This document shows, piece after piece, positions 13,501 to 63,954 of a stretch of DNA of 64,000 bases. Each line of letters opens with the position of its first letter. Position 1 is the stretch's first letter. Origin of the DNA: Microbotryum violaceum (taxonomy: Eukaryota); assembly GCA_001244265.2 (NCBI GenBank), contig CDLV01000004.1, positions 1,984,001-2,048,000 on the forward strand, read 5' to 3'. The position numbers and the translations under genes were made by a program. Below the pieces are notes generated by a model. It made no database searches. It was not told the origin of the DNA and saw nothing but the letters and a program-made list of their open reading frames with translations.

Positions 13501-15500
13501 CGTGGAGATTAGGATAGCGCGAAGGATCGGGTATCTCGGCCGGATCATTTTGTCGATCGCTTCCGTCGACAAAGGATGATCGTCCGGCGCGAGGGTGATG
13601 AGGATATGGGCATGTGGCAGGCCCCGCTTCTGATACTCAATCACATGTGTATGCGTCAGAACCACGCCAAAACAGCCTGCACGTTGCTTGTTGCCAAAAA
13701 CGTCGTCGCAGAGTCGGTTCAGCTTGGCTTCAAACACTCGTGCAATGAGATCCGGACGGTTGCATGCTTTGTCGTTCGGCCCCAGTGCAGCCTTGATTTC
13801 CGGCCATTCGGGGTTGCACGTCACCGTGATGAACAGCGAAGGCTTTTCATATTTGACGACGCAAGCCATCGCATCTTGGTAGCGCTGCGTGATCTCGCGC
13901 GGGCTATTCTTGAACGTCGAGCCCAAAATCACCGAACGTCCAATTTGATCCGGGGTCAGGCCGTTGGCAACAGCGTCGGTGATGCCTTGGGCCGTGGTGA
14001 GGCGCAGACTTTCTTGATGCAACCGGATGTAGTTGAGTCGATCGGTCTCGACTTGGGAGTATCCGTCAATCACGAACTCGAGGAAGAGACGCTGGGTGGC
14101 ATGCGGAATCGAGAAGTAGTCGTCGCGTTCGTGCAAGTGATATGCAAAGTATTGGGAACGCGAAACTCGGGTTGATTCACCTCGACCCCTCTTGTTTGAT
14201 CTTCGTCCTAGATTTTCGAACAATTTATGTCAGTCTGAGGGTGCGTCTCAACAGAGAGGTATATGAGAGTGAGCCGAAGACGCTTAGCTTACGTTCACCA
14301 TCACCATTCTCTTCGTCCTCCTCGTCGTCTTCATCCTCATCGTCCTCCTCTTCGTCTTCTTCATCTGGACCAAGGCCGTCAAGTAGCTCGCGCAATTGGA
14401 CACCAGTGTCGATCTGCTCTCGGTTTCTTGCGATGGGCGGCCCAGCTTGGTTGAAACCGCAAAGAGGAATGTTGGGGTGGAAGCCATCTTCCCCGCGGGG
14501 AAGAGTAGTGGGTACCGGAGAGGCAACGCAGACGGATGGAGCGAGCTGATGACTTGGTACTTGGGGCCGACCATCGGGACATCGATCACCGTGCACCTGG
14601 AGAATAAGGTCTTGCGGTCCACGATCTCCGGTGTTGGTGTCGGAATCGCAGATAAGCATCGCCATTTCCGTGCTTGACGTAGGAAGGTTGTGGGTGCGTC
14701 GGTCTCGGCCAGGTGGTAGACAGAGGCGCAGGACCCACTCTTTGGCTGTATCCCAACCCGCGCGGGCTTTGGCCGATGCGAACTCCCTCACAAAGCGATT
14801 GCCAGTGCGCAACATGGACTCTAGCCTGGTCAGCGTTGATCTTTGTATGCGAGTCTCTGTGCTGTCGGGTCCTTGAAGTCGTGTGTCGGTGGCCTCGGCC
14901 GGGTCGATCAGCCATGTCTGGGCAAAGGCTGGGCGTTGATTCACGGCAGGGATCAGGGCACCGAGTCGATCATAGAGGCGGCCGAACACGCGAAACACGG
15001 GAGGTCCTAGAGCTGCCTACTTGGGTTTGGTCCCAGTGGGCAGCGAGCGAAGTAAAGGATAGTGCGTTGTTGTAAGACCGGGCATTTTCACGGATTGCTC
15101 TAAATTCTGTGTAGGTGCATCGCACAGTTCAGTATGTGGGTCTACTGCAGACGAATGTTGTTCGACGGAGCAACTGACCGCTATCCGAGCCTTGAAGAAG
15201 CTGCCGATACTCGAGATTGGGCTGGGGAGGGGGAGGTAGCCGCACCTTGCCTTGCGAGCAGCACGCGCTGAAGTGTCCGGTCGACTTGGACCTTTCGCAC
15301 CCCCAGTGCCGAGCCTTGCAGTGGGTGCACACGGCCGTCTGGGGGCCGAGGTCGTCGCGGATCGAAACGTGGGGAGGAGGTGGTGGTGGGGCGAGCCCAG
15401 CGTCGAGTTGGCCATCGCGCTGACCACGCTGTCCGTTCTGCACAGCTGCACGGCGGGCTCGTATACGTGTCGCAATGCCAAGATCGGTTGAATTGTTGTC
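10545..15500 (-). mobile_element. Helitron RepHel gene (Zn finger, HUH/Y2 Rep, PIF1 helicase) with introns and frameshifts; element termini not resolved (roughly 10.3-16.2 kb)
   Basis: CTHCKARHW..ACCSQGKV; FITVTCNPEW, EYQKRGLPHAH, KYLFKYVYKG; GGTGKT, IWDEAPM, TINKAQGQSL, FTHGQLYVALSR; introns at about 15178-15108, 14292-14208 and 11758-11694. Confidence 0.93.
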
Positions 15501-16239
15501 ATGACGCGCCGGGGTGCTGATTCTGTTGATCGGTGCGGGACGAAAAGGAGGGTCGAGCCGCGGGGCGCCCAGCAGCGGGCGCTCGAGCAGGCCCATGGTA
15601 CGCTGCCACCCTCGCGCCCAAGAACTTGGCGAGGTTGCGATGACCCTCCGTGGCGACCTTGGGACCGGGGCATTACACAGTAGCGAAGGTTTGTTCTTGA
15701 ATGAGTGTCACTAAAATTGGATGAGAGTGGGAGGGAGAAAGGAAAGGTTCGAGGGAGTGGCACAGGATTATTTACGTGGTTTGTTTTGTTGTTTAGCCCC
15801 TAATGCTGACGGCGGGCGCGCCGCATCACGTGACAAATGTTAGCCCTCGCCCCGCGCGTCAGCCGCCAGGCGCCAGGCGGAGCTGTGCTGTAGAAGCAAT
15901 ATCATGCAAAGCCACGCGCTTGCGGTTCATTAAATACCATATGAGTGGAAGCATTGTTTTATGTCAGCGAAAAAAAGAAGGAAAATACTGGGAGCGCTGT
16001 AGCTTCGTTGGAACGGCGCGGAAAATACAAAAAGTCACCACAGGGCTTGTACATGACTTCTGATCGGAACCCCGACGCTACAGGCAGGTGCGGCAGACAC
16101 AACAGTATGCTGGTACATCCACCACAGGCGGCCCTCCCGGCCGCAACCTAGTTAAAAACAGCGATTTTAGGTACATTCCTTAACTCACACTTTTTTTTTT
16201 ACTAGTTAGGGTAATAGTTAGGGTAAAGGTCGATCCGCG

Positions 16240-18420
16240 ACCCATGTACCTAAAATCGCTGTTTTTGACTGTGTTGGCCGCCTATAGTGAATGTACCAGT
16301 ACAGTATTGCGTCCGCCGCACCTGCCTGTGATTTGGCAGAAGTCATGTACGACCCTTTTCGCATTTTCTACACCATAAAAGTCGAGCTACAGCCCGAGGA
16401 CAATTGTTGTTGATTTTTGGCGGGGTGCGCAACTATTGAGCAGTTTGTGTATGATTTAATGTATAGCAAGCGCGTGGGTTTGCATGACACTTCTTCTACA
16501 GAGCTCAGGCGTGGTCTCGCTGTCGTTGACGCGCGGACGCGTGCACCGCTACGCTGCGCGATGCCCCGTCGATCACGTGACGTATTTCTGGCATCCCGAT
16601 ACCGGTTTTAGGGGCTCAACAACAACATGAGGTTCCAGGCGCTGTGAATACTCCGGCGCTACTCTCTCCAAATTTCGCCTTTTCCCTCCTACTCTCATCG
16701 AATCTTCGTGACAACCGCGCCGAGTCTCTGGCGCGAGGATAGCGTATCGCCGTACCATGGGAGACCATGGGCCTGCTCGAGCTTGCTCAAGCGCCTGCCG
16801 CTGAGCCGGCTGCTCGACTCTCCTCTTTGTCCCGCTCCGATCAACAGAATCAGCTCCCCGCGCGTGATGACAACCACTCGACCGATCTTGATATTGCGAC
16901 CCGTATAAGCGTCCGCCGTACAGCTTTGTAGAACGGACAGCGTGGTCAGCGCGAGGGCCCGATGGTCGATCCGACGCTGAGCTCGCCCCACCACCACCTC
17001 TTCCTGCGCAGAGCAAGTGACAGGCCTCGAACCGCGCTCAAACCACTCAAGCCCCACGTTCCCATCCGCGACTAATTGGCCCCAGATGGCCGTGTGTGCC
17101 CACTGCAAGGCTCGACACTGGGAGTGCAAAGGACGAACCGGACACTTCAGCACGTGCTGCTCGCAGGGTAAGGTGCAGCTACCTCCCCCTCCCCAGCCCA
17201 ATCCCGAGTATCGGCAGCTTCTTGAAGGCTCGGATAGCGGTCAGTCTCTCCAGTCTGTCGTAGGCCCACATGCTGAACTGTTCGACCCGCCTACACAGAG
17301 ACGGTTGCATTCCGCGAGAATGCCCGGTCGTACAACAACTTGAACGTGCTGTCTTCACTTCGCTCGCTGCCCACTTTGACCAGACTCGACTAGGCACTCA
17401 AGGACCCCGCATGTTTCGGATATTTCGACGCCTTTACCATCGACTCGGCGCCTCTCGGCGCCCTGAATCCTGCCGTCAATCAGCGCCCAACCTTTGCCAA
17501 AACATGGCTCATCTGCCCGGCCGAAGCCACCGACACTCAACTTGGACCCGACGGCGCAGACAGTCGCATACAAAGATCTACTTTGACCAAGCTCGATTCT
17601 ACGTTGCGTACCGGCAATCGCTTGGTGAGGGAACTTGCATCGGCCAAAGCTCGCGCAGGTTAGGCCAAAGAGTGGGTCCTGCGCCTCTGTGGCCGAGACC
17701 GACGCATACACAACCTTCCTACGTCGAGCACCGAAATGGCGATGCTTATCTGCGATTCCGACACCAACACCGGAGATCGTGGACCGCAAGACCTTATTCT
17801 CCAGGTGCACGGTGATCGATGTCCCGAAGGTCGGCCCAAGTACCAAGTTGTCAGCTCGCTCCATCCGTCTGCGACGCCTCTCCGTTACCCACTCCTATTC
17901 CCTACAGGAGAAGATGGCTTCCTCCCCAACATTCCTCTGTGCAGTTCCAACCAAGCTGGGTCACCCTTCGCTGACGAAGAGGATGAAGACGAGGAGGAAG
18001 GGGACGAAGAGAATGGTGATGGTGAAGCGCCTTCGGTTCTCGGATGTTCCATTCTGTTAAGGCGCACGCACAGACTGCACAGACTGACATTGAACGTTTG
18101 AACATCTAGGACGAAGCTCAAATCAAGGGGATCGAGGTGGCGAGTCTCGCGTTCACAATCATTTGCGTACTACTTGCACAAACGCGACGAGTACTTCTCA
18201 ATCCCGCATTGTACCCAACGTGCCTTCCTGGCGTTCGTGATGACGGATACTCCCAGGTCGAGACCGATCGACTCAACTTACCTCCAGTTGGATCAAGAAA
18301 AACCTCCGCCTCACCACGGGCCAAGGCATCATCAGCTTGACCCCGGATCAAGTTGGATGTTCGGTGATTTTGGGCTCAACGTTCAAGAATAGACCGCGCG
18401 AGAACACGCAGCCTTACCAA
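16240..18420 (+). mobile_element. Second, diverged and truncated Helitron copy (5' portion), inverted relative to the first
   Basis: CAHCKARHWEC..TCCSQGKVQLPPPP and MAMLICDSDTNTGDRGPQDLILQVHG match copy 1; same intron (17240-17298); stops before the HUH motif. Confidence 0.9.
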
Positions 18421-20685: not shown

Positions 20686-25550
<4,865 letters not shown>

Positions 25551-28500
25551 GGCCCCCCTGGCCACACCTTCTGCAGGTCGAGCGCGATCCCGCGCCGAAC
25601 GAGGGCGTCGAGGAAGGGCTGGAACGTGATGTTCCAAACCGGGCACGAGAGGGGATCCCCCTGACCGAGACCACACAGCAACCGCACCAACTCCGTGGGG
25701 AACCCATTGATGAGGTAGCGCACCCCCAGAGTCTCGGGATCGTACAGAGCACGCAGCAGGGAAATGAAACGCTCACCAAAGCCAAAGGCCTCGAAGACGT
25801 CGAAGATCCATGCGTGATCGACCCGATCATACACGCTCTGCTGATCCAAGGACAAGAGGGCGCCCTCTGGGAAAACATCAGTACCGAGTGATCGGAGTTT
25901 TTCGAGAAGGAGAGTGAGATGACTTCCCGCGTCCGCTGAACGTCTTGATGGCATGAACCCGTGTTGCGCCGGCGGCAAAAGCTCGCCAAGCACCCCATTG
26001 AGTCGCGCCACCAAGACCTTGCTGAGGACCTTGTAGGTTGTCTCGCGCAGTGTGATCGGTCGATATGCCCCAGTGATTTCAGATTGGCCCCCGGTTTGTT
26101 CTTGGGCAAAAGCCGCACCAGCCCCTCTGCCAAGGACGCCGTCATTTTATCCCCCTCCCAAATCGAGTTGAACAGGTCCAACAGCTTGGGAGCGAAGTAG
26201 GTCGGCAGCGCCTTGAAAAGCTCATACGGAATGCCCGAAGGCCCCGGTGATCGCCCTGAATCCGTCTTCTTCAACGCCGCTTCGACCTCGGAAAGGTTGA
26301 AGGGCTCGTCAAGCGCCACTCTGGCTTAAAGGGGCAGCCGACGACCGAACGTAGGGTCCGAGCGGTCGTCATCGTAGCATTTCGCTGCGCGAATAGGGTC
26401 GAGCAGGGACCGACGTGCGTTCGTCGGGTCGCCGCGAGCTGGGTCCGGCGTGAAGAGCGACTGTGCGTGCCGTGAAGCAATACCCAGCGCCTCCTGCATG
26501 CAACGGTCTCGGTGCCATCCACATCCTCCAGCGAGACGATGCTCGTCTGGCGACTCCGGCGGTTGAGACCCGTGCGAATGCTTGCCGATTGACCTTCCCT
26601 CGAGTCGACTGACGGCACATGCGCACGAATGCGCAGCCACTGAGCCTCCTTTACCGCCAACTGATCCAACTGCGACTTGGCGAGAGCATACGCATCGCGC
26701 TCGGCCTCATTCATATGCTCACCGCGTGCCTCCAACGCCTCCATTACGGATTGGTTCTCGGCCCGCAGTCGGCGCATGTCGGCACGAGTCGAGCGGTATC
26801 GTGCGTGGCCAGCGGCTGCGACCGCCCGCAAAGCGGCGTCATAGACGTCACCGAGTGGAGCGGTCCCTCGAGTCTCCGATAGACCTCGTCGACGACCCCG
26901 GGAATCGATGCGACAAAGTCTTGATCGTCAAAGACCGTTGGGTTGAGCCTCAAAATGAAATCGCTCGTAGAGGGAAGAGAAAGGGGGGGGTTTGGCATCA
27001 GCAGCGTTCGATGTAGGCAATGCGAAAGTCGCAACTACGGGTCTGTGGTCCGAGCAAGGCGCATCGAAGAGTGTGGAAGCGCTCAACAACCGGTTTGCCC
27101 AACTGCGCTGGACAAGAATATAATCGATCCGCGACCACGAGCAGATTTCTCGTTTGTCCCCCTACCAAGGTAGTGAGGGCGAGTGAATGCCGGGGTGATG
27201 GGATGGAGTTGTCGGATCGTGTCGAGTGGGTTGAATGCGATCTTTGACAGCAAGGTCTGCCAGTGCGATACAGGAGTCCAAGCGTGATCGGTGATGGCCA
27301 CTCGGTCGACCGATACATCCGGACAATCATTGAGATCGCCGGCCAAGATCCGAAGAGTCTTGGGCACCGGAGCGGTGAAGTGCAGGAGCCCGTAGAAGTC
27401 GCGACGCTCTTCCCCATTGACCGGCGCATACATGTTGATGATCTCGATATCGAGCTCCTCAAGACGAAACACCGAGCGCAGGATCCGACCGTCGAATTGA
27501 GGGGCTTCTGCAAACACGACCGGGGTAGAGGAGAGAAGACGGCCCGCCAGAGGTGAGCCATCGGGTATAAGGGTAAGGACATGAGGTGCGAAACGAATAC
27601 AAGCTCCTGGCCAAGCACTCTCGAAGCCTTCGCGCAACGCGTTGTAGCTGAGGTGGTGCTCTTGCAGGAGAATGGCCGCAGGGGCCGGCCGAAGGGTTTT
27701 GAGATAGCGGATGATTTTGACTTGGTTGACTGCGTTCTTGATCGATCGGACGTTGAACGTCAACACGGTGAGGGACTCAATCATGATTAAATCAGATCAG
27801 CGCCGCCCCCTCGAATTCGGTCATCTTGGACCTGTGACCCCCTGAACTGTTGCCCCCTGAGCCGTCACCCCTGATGCACCGAGGATCATGGCGGATCCCG
27901 CCCGGGTGACACGTCGGTTGCCGGGTGCCGAGCTCGAACGAAAGCGTCGAGGACTCGTCGAGGCTATCGAGGTCGTCGAGGTTGCCGATGATTCCGACGT
28001 GCCACCGGACAAAGGCGATGCCGGAGCAGAAGTAGAAGGCGAAGGAGAGATCGGGGTCGAAACGGGCGCAGCTGTCGTCGTCTGCGTCTCCTTTGTTGGG
28101 CCCGTGGTCGCACGGGTCAACGTCTCTTTCCCAGTGTCGCCGCCCTCCGGTTCGGTCGAAGCGACCGATTCGCCGTCGTCGTCGTCGTCGTCACCGTCGC
28201 CGTCGTTCGCATCGTCCTTGTTGCCGGTCGCTGCCCCTGCGGGGTTAGCACGAGGTCCCAGCTGGATCATGTTCGTGCCAGAGGCACGAGAGTTCAATGC
28301 GGCAGGCCCACCGTGCTTCCCATTCTTTCCAGCAACTCGGAAGCCGGTGGTCGAAGTCGAAGTCGAAGTTGAAGCCCCCGGAACAGGGGCGGCGGTGGCC
28401 GGAGTCGAAGCCGGCTTCCTGCAAGCCCCCACTGGTGTCCGGCGCGATCGCACACGGCGCAGTAGTGCGTCTCAAATTCGTGTCGCAAGCCGTACTTGGC

Positions 28501-29527: not shown

Positions 29528-30125
29528 TTTGTGTGTGTGTGTGTGTTTTTTGACTGGGGCTCATAAATTGCAATCCTTCGGGTTGGCTGGGACCGCTACA
29601 AAAAGAGCTAAAGGAGGTTATAAAGCAACGACGGCAAGCAGTTGGGTGAAAGTCAAACCCCTGTGCGCAAAGAGCGCTGCGCAGATCAAAACCCGCCGAG
29701 CACCTAATGCGGACTCCAACGGGCGGTGAGTACTGCTGCCGCTTCACGTCCAAGAGCGGGAGCAAAGATACTTGAAAACCAGGCAAGAGCGCCTAGAGAA
29801 AGAAGGGGGAGAGTATACAGAAAGTCACAACTGGGGATACGGAGAACCAGGAATACTAAGACAGAGAGGAGGGGAACACACCCGAGGGGCCAAGGGAGGG
29901 GTCGAAGCCGGAGGTAGAGGTCCCCAGGGACTAACAGGCCGCAACCAAGCCCCAGCTACTCGTCACCCGACAGCGCCTGATGTCCTCTCTTGGCTAAATC
30001 TCGAGTGCTGGCTGTTGAGCCGTCGGGGCCGAGAGAAAAGCGATCCAGTACAACGAAACGAGCCTCGCCTTGATGCGAGGATATTGACCAGAAACGAGCG
30101 ACCTTCCTTCCCGAGCCATGCCGTA
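29528..30125 (-). mobile_element. 3' end of a second LINE-like family (ORF end, 3' UTR, A/(CA)n tail)
   Basis: 29551-29870 recurs at 47821-48138 next to a T20 tract; here preceded by (TG)n and T6. Confidence 0.7.
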
Positions 30126-32069
30126 GACCGTTGACATGCAGGAGGCGCTGGTATTGCTTCACGGCACGCACAGTCGCTCTTCACGCCGGACCCAGCTCGC
30201 GGCGACCCGACGAACGCACGTCGGTCCCTGCTCGACCCTATTCGCGCAGCGAAATGCTACGATGACGACCGCTCGGACCCTACGTTCGGTCGTCGGCTGC
30301 CCCTTTAAGCCAGAGTGGCGCTTGACGAGCCCTTCAACCTTTCCGAGGTCGAAGCGGCGTTGAAGAAGACGGATTCAGGGCGATCACCGGGGCCTTCGGG
30401 CATTCCGTATGAGCTTTTCAAGGCGCTGCCGACCTACTTCGCTCCCAAGCTGTTGGACCTGTTCAACTCGATTTGGGAGGGGATAAAATGACGGCGTCCT
30501 TGGCAGAGGGGCTGGTGCGGCTTTTGCCCAAGAACAAACCGGGGGCCAATCTGAAATCACTGGGGCATATCGACCGATCACACTGCGCGAGACAACCTAC
30601 AAGGTCCTCAGCAAGGTCTTGGTGGCGCGACTCAATGGGGTGCTTGGCGAGCTTTTGCCGCCGGCGCAACACGGGTTCATGCCATCAAGACGTTCAGCGG
30701 ACGCGGGAAGTCATCTCACTCTCCTTCTCGAAAAACTCCGATCACTCGGTACTGATGTTTTCCCAGAGGGCGCCCTCTTGTCCTTGGATCAGCAGAGCGT
30801 GTATGATCGGGTCGATCACGCATGGATCTTCGACGTCTTCGAGGCCTTTGGCTTTGGTGAGCGTTTCATTTCCCTGCTGCGCGCTCTGTACGATCCCGAG
30901 ACTCTGGGGGTGCGCTACCTCATCAATGGGTTCCCCACGGAGTTGGTGCGGTTGCTGTGTGGTCTCGGTCAGGGGGATCCCCTCTCGTGCCCGGTTTGGA
31001 ACATCACGTTCCAGCCCTTCCTCGACGCCCTCGTTTGGCGCGGGATCGCGCTCGATCTGCAGAAGGTGTGGCCAGGGGGGCCGTGTGCGCAGCTTACGCA
31101 TCTGGCGTTTTGCCGACGATGCTGTGGTGGTGGTGGAGTCACCGGCGGCATTGTCGAAGCTGGAAACGCTGTCGCAGACGTGGTACAAGGCAACCAATGG
31201 GAAGACCAACACGGACAAGACGCTGGTGCTACCACTCGGACCGAACTGGCTTCGGGACAAGACGGCGCAGGCACTGCCAACGGTGCAGGAGGGGAAGAGC
31301 TTCAAGTGGTGCGGCTATGCCTTCTTTCGCCATGGTGACTCGAAACTATTTTGGACCCATGTTCTTGACAGGATCAAGGCCAAGGCCCGCACCGCTCGAG
31401 ACCGGACGCTTTCGCCGAGTGGGAGGGTTTTCTATGCAAACGCCCACATCACCTCGACGGTCCTGCACGTGCTGTCGTTCGACATACCGCCTCAATGGTT
31501 CATTAAGGCGGCGGAGACAGCACTTACGGATTTTGTCTGGGGAGGAGCAGGGCGAAATACCGTCGCTCGCGATTTCGTGTTCCAGGCTCGGGAGGACGGT
31601 GGCTTGGGCTTGATTTCGATCGGCGACATCGTTCATTCGGTGGCGCTTCGATTTTGGGATGCTGTGGCGGGCTCGAACGAGGCGATCTGGGCGCCCCTAG
31701 CTCGCGAGAGCTGGAGGTCCCTCGTCGCTGCGACCCGCGATTTCAGTCCATTGTAAGGCCCGTGCGCCTGGGCCTTAGGAAGAGGGGACGCGCGCCTGGG
31801 CACTCTTAGTCTCTCTCCAGCGACTGATACGAGTGTCCAGGTGAGCACAAGGTGGATCAGAAGGCATTGTCATACCAGCGACTGATACGAGTGTCCAGTG
31901 TCAATTCTACATACTTTGGTCCTGTGATCCTTGTCGTCGTCGCTCAGGTGTACACTCCAACGGGGTGTATTACACTTTTTTTTCACACCGGTCAAAGACG
32001 CACACTGCCACGTGCGCCAGCGACACACCCACGGAACGAACAAATGACAACGAACGGTAACAGACGAAC

Positions 32070-34734
<2,665 letters not shown>

Positions 34735-34739
<5 letters not shown>

Positions 34740-34851
34740 GGCTCGGTTGCCTTACGCTATTTAACTACCCTTCTGATTTCAATATGCATCTATCGAAATT
34801 GTCAGTCTTTTGGACTGTGTAACCTAGTCGTGAAGGGCCTGGGGTATTACA
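34735..34851 (+). mobile_element. 117-bp mini solo-LTR-like insert (TGTAAGG..GTATTACA) sitting where RNase H should be
   Basis: Termini resemble the host LTR but the interior differs; flanks ggcgg/ggcga; the same insert is at 60018-60134. Confidence 0.7.
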
Positions 34852-34870
34852 GGCGAGCGACAATGTCAAC

Positions 34871-36430
34871 GTGCTGGCGGAGGCAACTCTCGATCCTGCC
34901 TTCCTTTGCAAACTCAGGGACGGTTACCGCAAGGACCCGCAATGTCAACAAGCTATCAAGAACATTGACTCAACACCAGGCTACTCAGTCGACAATGGAA
35001 TCGCACGGTTCGAAGGACGGATCCTCCTGCCAAAGACGGGGAATTTTCGGGAGGACGCGCTACATGACGCGCATGATGCCGCAGGCCATTTTGGACTACA
35101 CAAGACGTATGAACACCTACGCCGCAACTTTATCTGGTCGGGAATGAAGGATGCATGCAAAGATTACGTTGAGTCCTGTGCTGCTTGTCAGACAATGAAG
35201 ATGCATGGCACCGGTTTTGCCGGTCGGATCCACAATTTGAATGTGCCTGACCGGCCAATGCGGGAAGTTGGCCTAGACTTTGTCGGGCCACTTGTACCTA
35301 GCAATGGTAATGACGCACTGCTTACGGTAACAGATCGCTTTTCAGGCTACGTTCGCCTCATCCCCTGCCGCACGACGGACGACGCGACTACCACGGCGGA
35401 CCGGTTCTTTGAGGGGTGGCATCGACACTTTGGCATGCCACAAGTGCTGGTCTCCGACCGCGACAAGCTCTTCACAAGCGAGTTCTGGCGAGCGTACATG
35501 GGCCAGCTGGGAACGAAACTGGCAACATCGACGTCTTTCCACCCACAAACGGATGGCCGAAGCGAGCGAACAAATCGGACCGTGATCCAAGTCCTGCGAA
35601 CAATGGTCAACCGACGGCAAAATGACTGGTCAAAGCACTTGGCTACGGTGGAGTTTGTGATCAACTCCAGTATGAACAGGTCGACGGGGAAGACGCCATT
35701 TGAAGTGGTACTTGGGTTCACGCCGGAGCTCACACCGATCACCCCAGTGGAGGGCTCAACCACGTCACAGGCAGTCAAATCCATCGCGGAACAACGTGAA
35801 GCAGCGGTTGCGGAAGCCCGAGACAATTTGGCAATTGCAAAGATCCGACAGGCCAACCAGAGCAACAAGGCGAGGAAACCGGAGCCCGGGTTTGCAGTGG
35901 GCGACATGGTCTTAGTTGACTCGCGGGATCGACGACTGCGGTACAAGGCCGATGGGGAAGCACGGTCAGCCAAACTCTTTCCCCGGTTTGACGGCCCCTA
36001 CGAAGTCCTAGCAGCACGACCCGAAACCTCAAATTACAAGCTGAAGCTCAAGGCGGGGGACAAGTCGCACAACGTCTTCCACGCCTCCAAGCTCCGATGC
36101 TGGGTAAAGAACAATGGGGTGGTGTTCCCAGGACGAGAGGCAACGGAACCAGCGGCCATTATCGTCCAAGGAAACGAGGAGTGGGAGGTAGAACGGATTG
36201 TGGACGAAAAGGGGAAGGGGTCAAGGAAGAGGTTCTTGGTGAAATGGAAGGGGTGGGCAGACAGCAACAACACATGGGAGCCATGCTCACACCTGGAAGA
36301 CACCGCAGCGTTGGAAGAGTGGAAGAGTGGGAAGGTGGGGGAGGACAAGGCAAGGAGGGGAGGGTGTAAGGAGGAAGGGGAGTTTGGTTTAGGTGGTGGA
36401 GAGTGTAAGGCCCGTGCGCCTGGGCCTTAG
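34871..36430 (+). CDS. Gypsy integrase plus chromodomain (separated from RT)
   Basis: [27 protein letters not shown] motif, chromodomain. Confidence 0.93.
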
Positions 36431-39400
36431 GAAGAGGGGACGCGCGCCTGGGCACTCTTAGTCTCTCTCCAGCGACTGATACGAGTGTCCAGTGTCAATT
36501 CTACATACTTTGGTCCTGTGATCCTTGTCGTCGTCGCTCAGGTGTACACTCCAACGGGGTGTATTACATCCATGGGGGTTCTTCAGCAGCACGGCTCGGG
36601 TCGAGAAGCTGTATCGCGACTCGACGCGCTGGGGGGCAGTCGTTGCAGCGGCCAGGGTCACCTTACCAACCATCAAGTCCGAACTCCTTACGCTCCCCGA
36701 ATTGCTCTCGCTTCCGCCTCGCCTCCCTTCACTCTATGCTGAATGTGCCAAGAATAAGAGACTGACGAGCGTGTAATCCAACCGTCAGTTAATTGCATAT
36801 GATAGTAGCCGTAGTGCTAGATGTACGTACCTGACGAGCGTGTAATCCAACCGTGGAGAGAAGACAACGGTTGGTGCGCATTGCCAGGCTTCACTAAACA
36901 AACGCGCGCTTCTAATCAAATAACCGAAAGCCGCCTTCCTGCTAATCCTCATTCACAACACGCCAACTCGCCCCTTCATGCGAAGCGTATGACATGGCCA
37001 CATACTCGGCCTCGGTACTGGAGAGGGTGACGAGAGTCTGTCGCTTGGCGACCCAAGAGATAACCCCACCAGCGCACATGAACACGTAGCCCGAGACGCT
37101 CCGGTGAGTGACCGGGTCGGCGCCATGATCAGCATCGACGAATCCCTCCAAGATTGCCGACATATGCTGGAGGACTTCTGATAGCGGATGCCAAAATTGC
37201 GGGTACCGACAAGGTAGCGCAGGATGTGTTTGAGCGCTTCCCAATGCTCCGCCGTGAAGTCGTTGCAGAAACGAGCAGCCTTTGAAACGGCGAACGCGAT
37301 GTCGGGTCGGGTGGTGCCAGAGAGGTATAAGAGCTTGCCTACAATGGCGCGATAGGGGATCGAGGCAGGATCAAAACCGGAGTCAGCACGATTCCTCAGA
37401 GTCGACGGAGCCGTGAGAGGCGTGGGGCGGGGGGAGGCATTGGCCATGTGGTGTTCCTCAAGGATGGCATCAACGAAATGTCCCTGGTTGACAATCGCAG
37501 CACCCGTCTTGCCCTCACGACGGATGCTCTGGCCGAGGAAGAAGGAAGCCTCGTTGGTGCTGCGAGCTTCGAACCGAGCCTTGAGCTGACAGAGCACGCC
37601 GTCGAGATTCCCGTCACCCGTGAGCAGACCATTGTCGACATGAATGGAGAGGAAAGACCGTTGATTCCCCTCTTTGCGAACGAAAACGGCATGGTCACTG
37701 TTGGTGCGGGTGAAGCCAATGGACAGGCTCCATTCAGTGAAGACCTTGTACCACTCGCGGCCCGCCTGAACGAGGCCGTAGAGAGCGCGCTGCAAGCGCA
37801 TGATATAACCTCCGGGTAGTCGCATGTAAATCTCGGTCCTGCCGAGGTTGCCGTTGAGGTACGCAGACAAGACGTCGAACTGGCGGGTCTCCCACTCGTT
37901 CTCGACGGCGAGGGCGAGTAACAGTCAATGAGAGGCGGCTCGACCTGTGGGCGAGAACGAATTAATATGCACCCCCCGACGTCTTTGCATGTCCCCGCGC
38001 GCAACAAGTCAAGCTTTGTACTTGACAATTTGACCCTCCGCATTGCGCTTGACGAGGAGCACCCACATGCTCCCAATGACAATGGCCCCGGGCGGGGGTC
38101 GAACCGGCTTGGAGAACGCATTCTTAGCGGCAAGAGCTCCCTCCTCCACCGACATGGCGGCCAGCCAGTAATCACGAAAGGGGCCAGCGAGGGCGGCCTG
38201 GACCGAAGGAGTGTCATCGCTGTCGATCTTGGCGAGGAGCGCAGAGACTTCCCCAAACGAGTACATCTGCGTGTCAGGGTCACCTTTGTCGAAGTCATCG
38301 AACTGGATGGCTGCATGGTTGGCAAACTCCCAATGCTGTGCCGCGTGAGCAAATCCGAGGTAGTCAGGCGGACGGCGGGTCCGGGTGGAGCGATCACCAT
38401 CGGGCGGTGCGTTTGCCGGGCCAGGGTTCGAAAATGCGAGGGCGGGCGGAACGGGTGGCGGAGCGGCGGCAGCGGGAGCCACGGCCGGCGCTTCGGCGAC
38501 AGGGGGCGCAGCGGCGGAACCGATGCCGAGCGGCGCGGGCGGGTAAGACAAACCAACCGCAACAGGGATGGCAGGCATGGCAGGACTCACCGCAGCGGGA
38601 AAGAAACGGTCCTCAAAAAACCTGGCCTGAGACGACTCAAAGACCTTGTTGCGAACCGGATCGAAGAAGCGCCAGGCCTTGGATTGCGAGGAGTAGCCAA
38701 CAAAGTAGCAGAGGCGGGATCGCAGGGCCAGCTTGTTGGGACGTTGCTTGGGGCGAGCGGCACGTGAGCGGCACAGCCCCAGGTCTTGACACGGTCGAGG
38801 CGGCGGCGGCGGGTGTCCGTGACCGGGTCCGAGGGTTCGTGCAGCACAGAGTCTGGGGTGCGCTGCTGGAGCGGCGACGAGGGGAGCAGATTTATGACGT
38901 AGATCGCGGCGTGCGCCGCTTCATCCCAAAGTGCAGGAGGCAGTCCCGAGCGATGGAGCCAGGCGCGAACGGAGTTGAAGATCGTTCGCCAGCTGCGTTC
39001 CTGAACGCCCATCTCGCCGTGCTCGTACGCTGTGGAGAGCTCGTGGAAAATGCCCCGCGCGGCGAGCCAATCCCGGAGCCTGTGGTTCACAAACTCCCCC
39101 CTCTGTCCGTGCGCAGCGTCGTGACGCCCTGGCCCCCGTACTGGGTCTTCGACATCGCAACAAAATCCTGAAGGACGGCTGACGAGTCACTCTTGAGCCG
39201 GATGCTGCGAGCCCAGCGGAAGCGCGAAAACTTGTCCGTGATGCCGCAGAGGTAATGAGCACCCGAAAGTGCGGGCACAGGGGAAGGACCCCACACGTCG
39301 GCAAAGACACGGGAGAAAAGTGTGTCCACGGGGTGGCTCGCGGGTTCCCGGTTTGGGGAAGAGACGGTTTTGCCGGCGCAACAAGCATTGCACTGATCGA

Positions 39401-40784
39401 GGAGGCGAATCTGATCCGGAGTTACAGCTGCTACATTGAGTGGAATTTGACCCGACCTAACAAGCTCTACCAAACGACCCCAAGAAGGATGACCCAAGCG
39501 CTGATGCCAAAGCACTACGTCTGTAGGCAAGGTGGTGGCAGTCAGCGCCAGGTGATCCGCCGAGGAGGTGGGTGAGAACTTGCCTGAAGCACGTAGTGGT
39601 TGCAATTGAGGGCGAAGGAAAGGCGGGAGGTCGCGCTCGAGATCGCGATCCCGGTATGTTTCCCAGCCGCGTCGCACTTGTTGGATAGCTCATACCCGTC
39701 CTTCATCAGGCTGGCGAGTGAGACGAGTTCAGCGGACAGACCGGGGACGAGGAGGACGTCGTGGAACTCGATGGACGCTTTGTCAACACCGAACCGGAGA
39801 GCGCCCGTACCGGTCGCCATGGCACTGGAGTTGAAGGCGCCGACGACCCGGACGCGCTCCGTGGTGAAGGGCTTGAAGTCGATGAGGAGGTCCCGGCGAG
39901 TCGTCATGTGGCGGGTCGCACCCGAATCAAGCAAGTAGCGCGGGATTTCGCTCAGGTACAGCACCGTGTCGTCGTCACCAATGGGTACGCCGACAACAAA
40001 GTATCCCTCGTAGGCCTCGGGTGCACGGTCGACGGCGACGAGCGCCATTACGTCGGCCGTGCCAATGGTGATGTTGTGCTTGGCGAGAACAGCGATGCGG
40101 CGGCGAGAGACCTCTGCCGACGGCACCGTGCATTCGTCGCCAAGATGTCCCTGCTCGTAGCACCTTCTGCACTGCATCCGACCCAGTTTCAGGCGACCAG
40201 CGTGCGAGATCCCGTGAGGCCACCTCTCCTTGAGGCCGGGCACCCTCGAGGCCTGAAGGAAGGGGGGCGCCGAGGGACCGGAAGGACGGCCCGAGGGTTT
40301 CGAGCGAGGACGACCCGAGGCTGGCTGACTCCGAGACTGCACCCGTGCCGCTAATGCCTCCGCGATGGGCTCGATCTGCCGGCTCGAGGAAAGTGCGGCC
40401 CTACGTATCGCGCCCTCAACTTGCTCGAGCGATGGGAGCGTGCCGAAGGAGTCGATGACCGTCACGAGGTTCCTCGGCATCCTAGCCTTCAAGAGGTCCA
40501 TGCAAACGCCCTCGGACAGCGCGGGCGGTGGTACCACTTGTCGAAATCGCTCTGGGTAAACGATGTGCCGTCGATCCTGGCGCGTTGATAGGCTTTGTCA
40601 CGGGAGACGTGGGCGGCGACGAGGTCCTCAAACAACCGGTTGAAGTTCGCAAGCCATGGGTCGAGCGCTTCGCCGTCGACAAATGGCTCACACAAGAAGA
40701 GGGCGTCGAGCTTCGCTGAGCGCATGAAATTGTCCGAAGCGCGACCGAGATCCTTATCGAGCGCGGCCCACAAGTCGTGCGTGG

Positions 40785-45551
<4,767 letters not shown>

Positions 45552-46240
45552 CGTGGCGTTGGCTTTGACGCGGGCGAAGGTGGACTCCCCCAAGCATACG
45601 ATTAGCGTGTTGTGCGCCTGCGCAAGGGCCTGATCGAGAGCGTCGACATCCTGACGGTACAATCGAAGTTGGTTGCGATAGGTGGCCACATCGTCTACCC
45701 GGTTGTCGCCCTCCAAGCGAGTGAACTCGGACTGCAAAAGCTCGGGGCCGACGTCTAGAACACCGGTGACGTGCTTGAGGCGGCCCTCGCCTTTCAGGAC
45801 GTTCTGAAGTCGCTCCCTGGCAACACTCCAGTTGGTGGCGTCGACTTTGCCGTATAGGTCGCCCATCAGACTGACGTGGTCAGCCGTGGGAGTCGCCATC
45901 TTGGATATGCGCTGCGTCTTTTCTGCGTGCGGATCTGTGCCTTGCGGCAATACAGACGCTACCAAATAAGAGACTGACGAGCGTGTAATCCAACCGTGGA
46001 GAGAAGACAACGGTTGGTGCGCATTGCCAGGCTTCACTAAACAAACGCGCGCTTCTAATCAAATAACCGAAAGCCGCCTTCCTGCTAATCCTCATTCACA
46101 ACACGCCAACTCCAAGCACGCATATGACGATGCGGACGCAGTGGCGAAGTTTGCGCAGATCGCGGACCTGTACTGGAGGGACGAAGGAAAGGGCTGGGCT
46201 CTGGTTGGTCATTGACGCGGGTTCTGGCAGCACTCTAAGG

Positions 46241-46660
46241 TGTGAGATTGACAACCTCCTGTGTTTCCTTCTCGCATCATGTCTCCTTTTCTCGGTCTCG
46301 TTTTACTTCCTTTGACCTGCCTTTCACACCTTAGCTCTCTTCCTTTCTGGGCTGGGTCCGTGCGCCTGACACAGGTGGCTGGCCCAGCTGCGCGCTCACC
46401 CGAGCCAACTGGCTCCGCGCTTCTCTTTCTCCTGCTCAAGCAACTTCTTGGTCTGGTCTCCTTGGTCCGTCGATCAGAGCCTTACCACCGCTTGAGCAGG
46501 TGAGCACTACACTTCGTTCTTCCTTTACTTTCACTAGCTATTATAACTCACTGTAGTGCTTGAGCAGGTGTGTAATTCAAGCAACTTCTTGGTCTGGTCT
46601 CCTTGGTCCGTCGATCAGAGCCTTACCACCGCTTGAGCAGGTGTTCGTCGCAACTTCATA
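46241..46660 (+). mobile_element. Solo LTR of a further family (F), 420 bp, TSD taagg
   Basis: TGTGAG..TTCATA termini (CA>TA); taagg at 46236-46240 and 46661-46665; interrupts LINE ORF2. Confidence 0.85.
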
Positions 46661-51394: not shown

Positions 51395-54300
51395 TGTTGA
51401 GTTGACCACTTGAGGAGTACACTCTGCAGGCTACATGAGCGCGAGCGCGCGCGCGCTTTCTTAGCTTCCTTCTGATTCGAGTGTTCTAACGTATTGAACC
51501 GCCTCGAATCAGGTCAGTAGTATTCACGGTATCATTGCAATAGTTAACTGAGCGTTCTAACGTATTGAACCACCTCGAATCAGACGCTGAGATTCTAGAG
51601 GTTATAAGCCCGACGACTTCGCACAGCTGCTGCCACGTTGCAGCGGTTCACCCGAACGCTCCACCATGACTGGCGAACAGTCAACTATCGACAAGTCCGT
51701 CGACGCAGACCCTTCAACACACTCGCAAGCTTCTCGTTTCCCCGCATTGCGATTTTGAAAAATAACAACCTCGATGTATGGCTCGATCACGTTCGCTTCA
51801 CCATCGACAGGCGTCAGTGGCAGCTCTCCTTTCCCAAGCAGTACCCATCCGCTTAATGCAAGGACGACGATGAACTCGATCGAGCTCATGATGCGGTACA
51901 CAAGGAAATGCATCAAACCTGCTCGGAAAGTGTGGCGCATCTTCTGGTCAGGTGCTACGACATGACGCCGGAGCAGACGGTCGAATACCTTCGAAAGCAC
52001 CTCGGTCGGTCTTCCCTTCGCGGCATTATCACGCAGGTCGGAAAGTTGTTCTCGGTCGGACCGCCACCAGCACAGGAAGACGATTATCTTAATTGGGCCG
52101 GGTCCATCACTCGCCTCACAACTGACCTACGGGCTCACAATATGACGTTCGATCAAGTGGTTGCATGCCACCTCATTGCGATTGTGGGGGCTCGACGACC
52201 GTCGTATCTGGATCAGTTTGACTCCAAAGGCGTCGATGCAATAACAACTGTTGACACAGTGATCGCAGCAGGTCGAGCTCCAGCAAGCTTGAGTCAAGAA
52301 ATTGGGAACGCTGCGACGGCGTTGTTGGCCACGACTGGTGCCCCACCGAAGCCACCTGGCCCCTGCTGGAACTGCGGTGAAGACACCCACTTCAACAAAA
52401 ACTGTTCCAAGCCGAAGAAGAAGAAGTCTTCACGACGCAAGACGACCAAAGGCGAGGAACCGATGGCGAATTTGACGCTCCCTTCGGTTGAAGACATTCT
52501 GGGGATCAATTCCGTTGGCGCGTTCTTCACGCAATTACCAAAGGGACACTCTTGAGAAATGATCCTCTACGACACCGCAGCAACTCATCATGTCATCAAT
52601 GATCCTGCCGCGTTTGCCGACCTGAAGGCAACAGCTCCGTCTTCGTTAAAGGGCATCAATGGTGAGGGAAAGACCATTATGGGAGTAGGCACGGCCTGCA
52701 TCGAAGACAAGAACGGCAAGAGGTACAACTTGGTCAACAGCATCTTCGTCCCTAGTGCCCCCGCCAATCTCTTTGCCGGGCATCGAGCCAATCGTGATAG
52801 TCGCAAGATCACCATTCAAAATGGGTGATTCACGGTGGCGGGAAATGGCGACATCCTACTCACGGGACAGAAGCTCAATTTGGGGTTGTATTGTCTGGAC
52901 CTCAAGTTGATTCGAGCTCAAAGTGCACCCCTTGACTGTGCGTCAGCCACAGCTCTGACAACAGTGCCTCTCCACATCTGGCACGGATGTTTCACTCATC
53001 TGCACTGCCGTTCTCTTCACCAGCTGTCCAAGTCTGACGCTGTGATAGGTTTGAACATGAAGTCTTGCAGTGACTTGAAATGCGAATTGTGTCTGGCCGG
53101 TAAAGCTATGCACAAGCCGTTCCCAAACTCCGAATCGCGTGCCGGAAAACCCCTTGATCTTGTCCACATTGATCTTTTGTCCTTCGACGGCAAGCTGTCA
53201 CTTGCAAACCATTGCTACGCGCTAGTTATCATCGACGATTGTACGCGGTACATGTGGGTGTTGACAATGCCGCGGAAGTCGGACTCCTTCTGAAGGTTCA
53301 AAATGTGGAAACTACGGGTCGAGCTGTTGTCAGGGCACACTTTGAAAGTTGTCTGTTCGGACTGCGGTGGCGAGTTCCTTTTGACAGAGTTCAAGCGATG
53401 GTTGGACGGCACGGGTTTGTCGCTACAACTCACGATCCCCAGCACGCCCAAGCAAAACGGTGTCGCCGAAAGGGCCAACCACTTGATTTCGGAAGCAGCT
53501 CCAACAATGCTGTATGAATCCGGTCTGCCCACGGTGTTTTGGGCCGAAGCCGTGGCTACATACGTGTATGTGAAGAATTGTTCCCCACACTCTGCCCTTG
53601 GTGCCAAGGTGCCATATCAGGAATGGACCAGGAAACCTGCTCACGTTCATCACTTACGGGTCTTCGGATGTTGAGCTTGGCACACGGCAAATACTGAACA
53701 GTGTAAGAAGCTCCAGCCACGGGGCCTTCCAATGATCTTCCTCGGATACGACCTAGAATCCAAAGCCTACCGCCTATGGGACCCGGTGAGGGCGTGGTTA
53801 ACGTTATTGCGAAGCGTAACATTCTTCAAGGACAAGTTCCCGGCCCGTGAAGGCGCGCCAGCACCGAGGACACCAACAATTGAGGTGATCGAAGTAGTCG
53901 TACCTCAACCAGTTGCGACAAATTGCCATGAAGCTGAGCAACAGCCAATCGCTGCGGCCCCGGAGGTCGAGGTACACGCCCGGGAGGAAAATCTGGTCGA
54001 TGACGTTGACCCTGCCGAGCAATGCGGACCAGCTGTGGAAGATGTACCAAAGGAGCTGCGTTTTGAAGCTCCCGGACCTGCTTGGGCAGCACCGGTCGGA
54101 AAGCGGGCTCGTAGGGCGCCTGAGCGTTTCGAACCGGAGGCCTTCGCAGCCGTTGCCGATTCCGACGAGGAGGACGGTCCGTTTGTTTTGCCAACTAGTG
54201 ATCCCACGACTTGGAAGGCAGCCATGGCCCACCACAAGTCTCACAAATGGGCGCAAGGTGCAATCGATGAGTTCGAGTCATTGCGTGATGATTACTCAGT

Positions 54301-57793: not shown

Positions 57794-63954
<6,161 letters not shown>

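Follow-up and report, generated by a model that had tools for sequence, protein, structure and literature searches.

A splice-phased repeat unit in the LTRs of a Microbotryum chromovirus, and how reverse transcription might rebuild it

How an LTR retrotransposon might transmit an intron lying beside its cap, when reverse transcription normally removes spliced introns from retroelements, is the question raised by a long terminal repeat (LTR) in a 64,000-nt stretch of Microbotryum violaceum DNA (contig CDLV01000004.1, positions 1,984,001 to 2,048,000, hereafter the window). The first-pass annotation had described there a 58-nt GT..AG unit at 31841-31898 with a perfect 24-nt repeat, and the sequence is as described, the two repeats (rep1 and rep2) being identical at 24/24 nt. 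The unit and its surroundings are composed as follows.

31802..31816, + strand: pyrimidine (CT) tract just 5' of rep1, 12/15 pyrimidines, putative core promoter element
31817..31840, + strand: rep1, 24 nt, CAG at its 3' end, candidate first exon and R region
31841..31898, + strand: intron-like unit, 58 nt, made of donor GTGAGC, spacer, rep2 and acceptor CAG
31899..31974, + strand: U5-like tail with a terminal hairpin
31975..31986, + strand: T-rich stretch at the primer-binding position, a T-run replacing the tRNA primer site

The 34-nt spacer (31841-31874) opens with GTGAGC, and rep2 (31875-31898) also ends in CAG and contains a branch-like CTGAT at 31882-31886, 14 nt from the unit end. Fungal introns follow a general splice-site consensus, and a CT box is a fungal core promoter element. 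By that consensus, which may not be the host's own, the unit has the features of a U2-type intron, namely a GT donor with G at +5, a branch-like motif, a YAG acceptor and a length of 58 nt. The unit is probably a real feature that is excised by splicing in some form. A self-BLAST of the window confines it to these LTRs, and insertion of a mobile intron (introner) that duplicated a 24-bp target was rejected, since the spacer ends are not inverted and unrelated sites of the window hold no copies. Predicted RNA folds of the long and short leaders were no better than those of shuffled sequences (z -0.48 and -1.01).

The element that carries the unit is present in the window in two copies.

31752..31974, + strand: copy 1 5' LTR, long form, TG..CA, 223 nt, target-site duplication (TSD) TCCAT
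32159..36430, + strand: gag-pol region, protease-RT-RNaseH-integrase-chromodomain
33100..33214, + strand: internal GT..AG intron over the protease start, acceptors 33209 and 33214, from joints in sequencing run X4 and a frame test
36404..36568, + strand: copy 1 3' LTR, short form, 165 nt, single repeat at 36469-36492
58243..58465, - strand: copy 2 3' LTR, long form, unit at 58319-58376
62898..63120, - strand: copy 2 5' LTR, long form, unit at 62974-63031, TSD TTGAG

Its assignment to Gypsy in the first-pass annotation is borne out by the domain matches, including the chromodomain, and by domain order together with LTR and TSD features it is a chromodomain Ty3/Gypsy element (chromovirus). TG..CA LTRs, a polypurine tract (directly 5' of the 3' LTR in copy 1) and matching 5-bp TSDs (TCCAT and TTGAG) are found in both copies. 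The domains recovered are RVP_2, RVT_1, RT_RNaseH_2, Integrase_H2C2, rve, SH3_Tf2-1 and Chromo, with RT_RNaseH_2 from copy 2 slightly below its cut-off (29.5 against 29.8 bits) and rve also below cut-off. The nearest named relatives of the integrase are in Microbotryum species (top matches 71-89% identical), followed by Rhodotorula and Rhodosporidiobolus. Single-base indels in homopolymer runs of the assembly break the gag-pol frame, are absent from the sequencing runs that cover them and are likely assembly errors. The chromodomain, TG..CA LTRs, 5-bp TSD and T-rich primer position are shared with Tcn1-like chromoviruses, and the Tcn1-clade element SM-Tcn1 has a T-rich stretch without a primer-binding site (PMC2864245); for membership of the Tcn1 clade in particular the T-rich primer position is the one match, and the element is at most a candidate member. 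In the portions of that paper drawn on here an LTR intron goes unmentioned and the introns named are mitochondrial only (PMC2864245).

Within the window the unit occurs in 3/4 LTRs of the Gypsy family, in the copy 1 5' LTR and, as had been reported, in both LTRs of copy 2 on the - strand. The copy 1 3' LTR had been said to lack it precisely, and exactly 58 nt are indeed gone, with 0 substitutions over the 165 shared positions. This exact loss is nevertheless no evidence of splicing, because deletion between the 24-nt repeats yields an identical product: 25 equivalent registers give the same short LTR, and just one of the 25 has GT..AG ends.

An unbiased scan of the 64 kb for near-tandem repeats returned 9 pairs, every one within five repeat families, and a looser rerun added one unrelated pair. 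The five families, which are this Gypsy, three Copia families (A, B and C) and one putative solo LTR, all carry a module with AG|GT at the repeat end. Those outside the Gypsy are the following.

20731..20924, - strand: Copia family A 3' LTR, two units (triple repeat)
36762..36830, - strand: Copia family C 3' LTR module, 69 nt, donor GTACGT, 24-nt repeat, 9-nt tail
41019..41115, + strand: Copia family A 5' LTR module, 97 nt, donor GTTAGT, 80-nt repeat, 3' LTR short
45965-46112: Copia family C 5' LTR, short form
46500..46640, + strand: module of the putative solo LTR, 141 nt, donor GTGAGC, 64-nt repeat
51513..51583, + strand: Copia family B 5' LTR module, 71 nt, donor GTCAGT, 34-nt repeat, 3' LTR short

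The LTRs of the five families do not align to one another. In every family rep1 is preceded by 12-15/15 pyrimidines and ends in YAG, the donor (GTGAGC, GTTAGT, GTCAGT, GTACGT and GTGAGC) has G at +5, and the spacer is richer in A+T than U3. Unit lengths range from 58 to 141 nt, and a branch-like motif lies 14-29 nt before the final AG in 4/5 families, being absent near the final AG of the putative solo LTR. With four offsets and two strands allowed, a repeat has a chance of about 0.029 of ending at AG|GT, so that its presence in 5/5 families by chance amounts to 2e-8, or to 8e-4 when only Gypsy and Copia are taken as independent. The splice-like phasing of the repeats exceeds chance, and the splice signals first noticed in the Gypsy LTR are thus more than coincidental. 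Between rep2 and the primer site there are 9 nt in Copia C and 16 nt in Copia B, so few that the repeat would have to supply R.

Two structural details accompany these families. At 36753-46112 a third Copia A copy is nested inside Copia C, an element with non-canonical LTR ends. In the putative solo LTR (46436-46643) 10 nt of the exon end are copied once more within the spacer, together with a separate branch-like motif, which makes an inner, shorter intron possible.

Among 84 related Gypsy loci a convincing module was found in one alone, a metagenomic element (L027) with the module in both LTR copies (34-37-nt repeat, AAG|GTCAGC, 112-113 nt). Its integrase is 34% identical to that of the Gypsy studied here, and its nearest named proteins are those of plant and algal elements, about 50-65% identical; the two Gypsy cases together uphold the statement that the design is not Copia-specific. 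L027 (1-7387) is an intact, G+C-rich chromodomain Gypsy with a tandem or circular LTR arrangement and belongs to a large metagenomic clade with RT identities of 73-96%. LTR-sized repeat pairs in L035, L040, L043, L046, L048, L051, L068 and L069 showed no clear module, and AG|GT-flagged repeats in L019 (two) and L074 (one) lie on the opposite strand within arrays and were excluded from the count. Over the 84 loci donor-anchored repeats were not clearly enriched (9/837 sites, against 0/792, 17/1467, 1/1108, 2/477 and 1/890 in controls). With L027 as the sole convincing case and no clear enrichment, the module is therefore patchy and not general. Scans of viral contigs with the RTs of L027 and Copia A returned no relatives.

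The repeats themselves bear on how the unit is maintained. In the 3' LTR of Gypsy copy 2 the same change is found in both repeats (C>T on the + strand, at 58328 and 58386), and these two sites are the sole differences between the copy 2 LTRs in 223 nt; two independent hits at that repeat base have an estimated probability of 2e-4 to 3e-3, calculated from the 345 internal CpG sites and their 5 CpG transitions. Copia A has a non-CpG site at which every repeat copy of two elements (5/5) reads C and every one of a third element (3/3) reads T, and in L027 both repeats of one LTR have T at a site where both repeats of the other LTR have C. A private base common to both repeats, seen in three families, suggests that rep1 and rep2 are re-copied from each other, and a duplication made once and then passed down as paralogues does not fit. 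The copy 2 change is of the TpCpG hypermutation type, which is known in Microbotryum (PMC5381629), and this weighs against the re-copying reading. Copy 2 had also been taken as proof that the unit passes through a full retrotransposition cycle into both LTRs; both are indeed long, but the passage of one template into both is not clean, because a base change shared by the two repeats separates them.

The LTRs of single insertions are often unequal. Among elements with matching TSDs, unit number differs between the two LTRs in 3/4, namely Gypsy copy 1 (long/short), Copia A copy 3 (long/short) and Copia C (short/long), the fourth being Gypsy copy 2, and outside the unit two of the three unequal pairs are free of substitutions. 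This count leaves out Copia A copy 2 and Copia B for their mismatched TSDs; with them 5/6 pairs differ. Gypsy copies 1 and 2 are separated by 9 internal substitutions, all within 33918-36375. At 4 or more sites the sequencing runs have the copy 2 base, and among the sites listed 4/4 fall in the last 673 of 4429 nt, a clustering with a chance of about 1e-3. The short LTR of copy 1 may, on this pattern, have come with the 3' segment of a second template; post-insertion slippage or gene conversion may also be the source of unequal LTRs. Private changes along the three Copia A copies form no clear mosaic pattern.

Some neighbouring features are recorded here for completeness. Private substitutions of copy 1 bunch at 35731-36375, next to the short 3' LTR, and suggest that the element is a mosaic. 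A 960-nt inverted duplication (25551-26509 and 30125-31082, 99%) adjoins Copia A copy 2 and, together with the mismatched TSD of that copy, likely reflects a rearrangement. A large imperfect inverted repeat lies at 13876-18420, around 16080-16329 (about 77-78% over 0.5 and 1.2 kb).

Transcript-like evidence comes from sequencing runs. Four of 17 runs (X1, X2, X4 and X12) were compared over 31600-36403, all as contigs, which keep the major path only and lose minor variants; 11 of the 17 were guessed to be RNA, none is recorded as such, and the kind of X4 is likewise a guess. One X4 contig joins 31816 to 31875 (GT..AG at the +24 register) at a depth of 20.4, and at 31851 in the spacer X4 has a depth of 0, against 254.9, 13.4 and 848.5 in X1, X2 and X12. 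Four of the six joints in X4 are short skips, all four with canonical intron ends, the others being 33099>33210 and 33099>33215 (GT..AG) and 33450>33509 (CT..AC); X1, X2 and X12 have no such short joints over the same interval, and in X1 and X12, both DNA-like, the long-form LTR stands in contigs free of errors, at a depth roughly double that of the internal region. X4 behaves like RNA, and its joined contig is suggestive RNA evidence for excision of the unit. On the other hand, the organism label of X4 differs from that of X1 and X12, and short LTRs in the genome behind X4 may be all that the joint reflects.

The same runs offer views of the rest of the element. Skipping 33100-33209 or 33100-33214 leads in the frame test to a stop 1 or 7 codons past the junction, and this splicing in X4 resembles the Gag-only mRNA of EVD and copia, here in a Gypsy element. 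The 58-nt CT..AC joint at 33451-33508 (- strand) would correspond to a spliced antisense transcript of the element. A diverged subfamily, possibly a non-autonomous derivative, is present in X1 and X12; its LTR is of the long form, and 466 nt of gag are skipped (32026-32493).

On the observed DNA layout, its recurrence, the shared private bases and the one joined contig, we favour, at slightly better than even chances, a U2-type intron just past the transcription start that is restored by transfer of spliced strong-stop DNA to the second repeat. Transcription would begin at rep1, behind the CT tract, with rep1 serving as a 24-nt first exon and as R. Splicing out of the 58 nt, a step to which the X4 joint lends partial evidence, would give an otherwise intron-poor RNA a cap-proximal intron. 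Minus-strand strong-stop DNA from the spliced 5' end (rep1-U5) would then land on rep2 of an RNA 3' end, running to a putative poly(A) site, that still contains the spacer, whereby rep1-spacer-rep2 would be restored; the rebuilt rep2 would be a fresh copy of the first exon, and the terminal CAG of that exon would supply the acceptor. A short LTR would result if the strong stop were transferred to rep1 or to a 3' end already spliced, and the triple form if an unspliced strong stop reached rep2. The two LTRs of one insertion would often derive from two templates and would therefore differ in unit number. Such a cycle would account for the start and end of the repeats, the acceptor AG, their homogenisation and the one-, two- and three-unit forms. 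Slippage of the template, or unequal exchange, can likewise yield one, two or three copies and homogenise the repeats.

The likely benefit of the unit would be expression, basidiomycete mRNAs tending to need a cap-proximal intron. In Cryptococcus, intron removal strongly lowers the mRNA of most genes tested (PMC3744415), and in Rhodotorula the ACC1 promoter with its intron outperforms the intron-less version (PMC5124236). Whether unrelated Gypsy and Copia elements have converged on a self-rebuilding LTR intron, with the first exon duplicated at the intron end, is an evenly balanced matter.

Several points count against the rebuilding cycle or strain it, among them the single convincing case in 84 related loci and the missing branch-like motif of the putative solo LTR. 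The joined X4 contig contains all 65 nt of U3, which places the short form on the 3'-LTR side, and this counts against the cycle because it requires some unspliced 3' ends. The second-template step departs from known transfer, since in retroviruses plus-strand transfer is reported to occur within one molecule (PMC12789967), and such a step is conjectural here. Two further patterns were discarded: LTR coverage in X2 ends near 31911 and is missing over 31922-32404, as an unspliced 3' end would produce, in a shallow, patchy run of uncertain kind with 25/30 bins covered; and, among the loose contig ends listed, a further X4 contig (depth about 77) has a back-calculated start near 31878, the start of rep2, where contigs cannot show starts. 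Junction reads, the check first proposed, are partly blind as a test, in that with a start at rep1 the spliced 5' end equals unspliced rep2-U5 letter for letter.

A possible but doubtful alternative is that the unit is spliced and simply kept through a minority of unspliced packaged RNA, intron-less progeny being poorly expressed, and that the repeat is a relic of intron birth by duplication, with short and triple forms arising by slippage. Intron birth of this kind is known from the Rogers model, in which a tandem duplication spans an AG|GT site. The present layout resembles it in that the upstream copy supplies the donor side and the downstream copy the acceptor AG, and differs in having a unique spacer between copies that were seemingly re-templated repeatedly, not made once. 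Full-length genomic RNA of the Gypsy must already retain the internal intron (33100-33209), which means that unspliced RNA is used, and the short form on the U3-linked side in X4 also suits such retention. The closest known case is Penelope of Drosophila virilis, whose pseudo-LTR holds a 75-bp intron 46 bp past the start that is kept despite mostly spliced transcripts and whose deletion abolishes reporter expression (PMC2377424); the argument from poorly expressed intron-less progeny has been made for that element. Penelope shares with the present element a short spliceosomal-type intron near the start inside a retroelement terminal repeat, but is not an LTR retrotransposon, its pseudo-LTRs arising from tandem insertion; the parts of the paper that treat the intron explain its retention by selection and describe no exon copy at the intron end (PMC2377424). 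The Gypsy itself was rejected as a Penelope-like element (PLE RT, GIY-YIG endonuclease, pseudo-LTRs), as it has a DDE integrase and true LTRs. Simple retention does not predict the identity of rep1 and rep2 with shared private changes in three unrelated families, nor a repeat start directly behind the CT tract.

Unspliced genomic RNA is also the vehicle by which the internal introns of Drosophila copia, barley BARE1 and Arabidopsis EVD, which set the Gag:Pol ratio, are inherited (PMC5580714). These too are LTR retrotransposons using the host spliceosome, and the internal Gypsy intron (33100-33209/33214) fits their type. The 58-nt unit was rejected as a gag intron of the copia/EVD kind because it is located in the LTR, whereas those introns lie in the coding region, outside the LTR and without a flanking repeat. 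The portions of the Arabidopsis survey consulted report no conserved Gag-only splicing feature of this sort in Ty3/Gypsy (PMC5580714).

It is unlikely, and less probable than retention, that the unit is never excised and represents a tandem duplication of the R region whose copy number changes by template switching or DNA slippage, the donor-like motif either binding U1 to hide the poly(A) signal of the 5' LTR or being a by-product of repeat phasing. Template switching by reverse transcriptase deletes and duplicates direct repeats, and tandem repeats occur in LTRs; one-, two- and three-copy forms, exact unit loss through any of the 25 registers and A+T-rich spacers in 5/5 families all agree with this explanation. 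Template switching gives no reason, however, for a repeat that ends at a donor and starts behind a CT tract in unrelated families. Moreover, AG|GT at the repeat end in 5/5 families plus L027, units of 58-141 nt, branch-like motifs at 14-29 nt from the AG in 4/5 families, and a unit spanned as a joint in X4 and retained in X1 and X12 all speak for excision. In HIV-1 a role of U1 in silencing the poly(A) site of the 5' LTR offers a precedent (work cited in PMC12789967). An assembly artefact or chance resemblance is very improbable and largely refuted: the assembly does contain single-base homopolymer indels not shared by the examined runs, but the long form stands in error-free X1 and X12 contigs, the short form is met as the X4 joint, and the module recurs in five families and L027.

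A literature search covering titles and the starts of abstracts, largely of freely available papers, found no description of the module. The main texts of two Microbotryum retrotransposon papers (PMC5381629 and PMC10502011) hold nothing relevant on introns or splicing in the parts seen, nor does the genome paper, in the part seen, on introns or splicing of LTRs (PMC4469406).

An intron in the terminal repeat of a retroelement is a known kind of feature, and the mechanism would be new if rebuilding holds, which is at present the best reading and an unproven one. If true, an LTR element would be spliced beside its cap and yet transmit the intron, resolving the conflict between the stripping of spliced introns in reverse transcription and the poor expression of intron-less RNA in at least some basidiomycetes (PMC3744415). 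Retroelements would in this way pass an intron-dependent expression check, and new introns would be made by a concrete and testable route. A fresh insertion would also be left with two unequal LTRs. Dating by LTR divergence presumes that the LTRs are identical at insertion, as stated for Microbotryum (PMC10502011), and would be affected accordingly, given that 3/4 single insertions in the window have LTRs of unequal unit number, and that two of these three show no substitution in the rest of the LTR.
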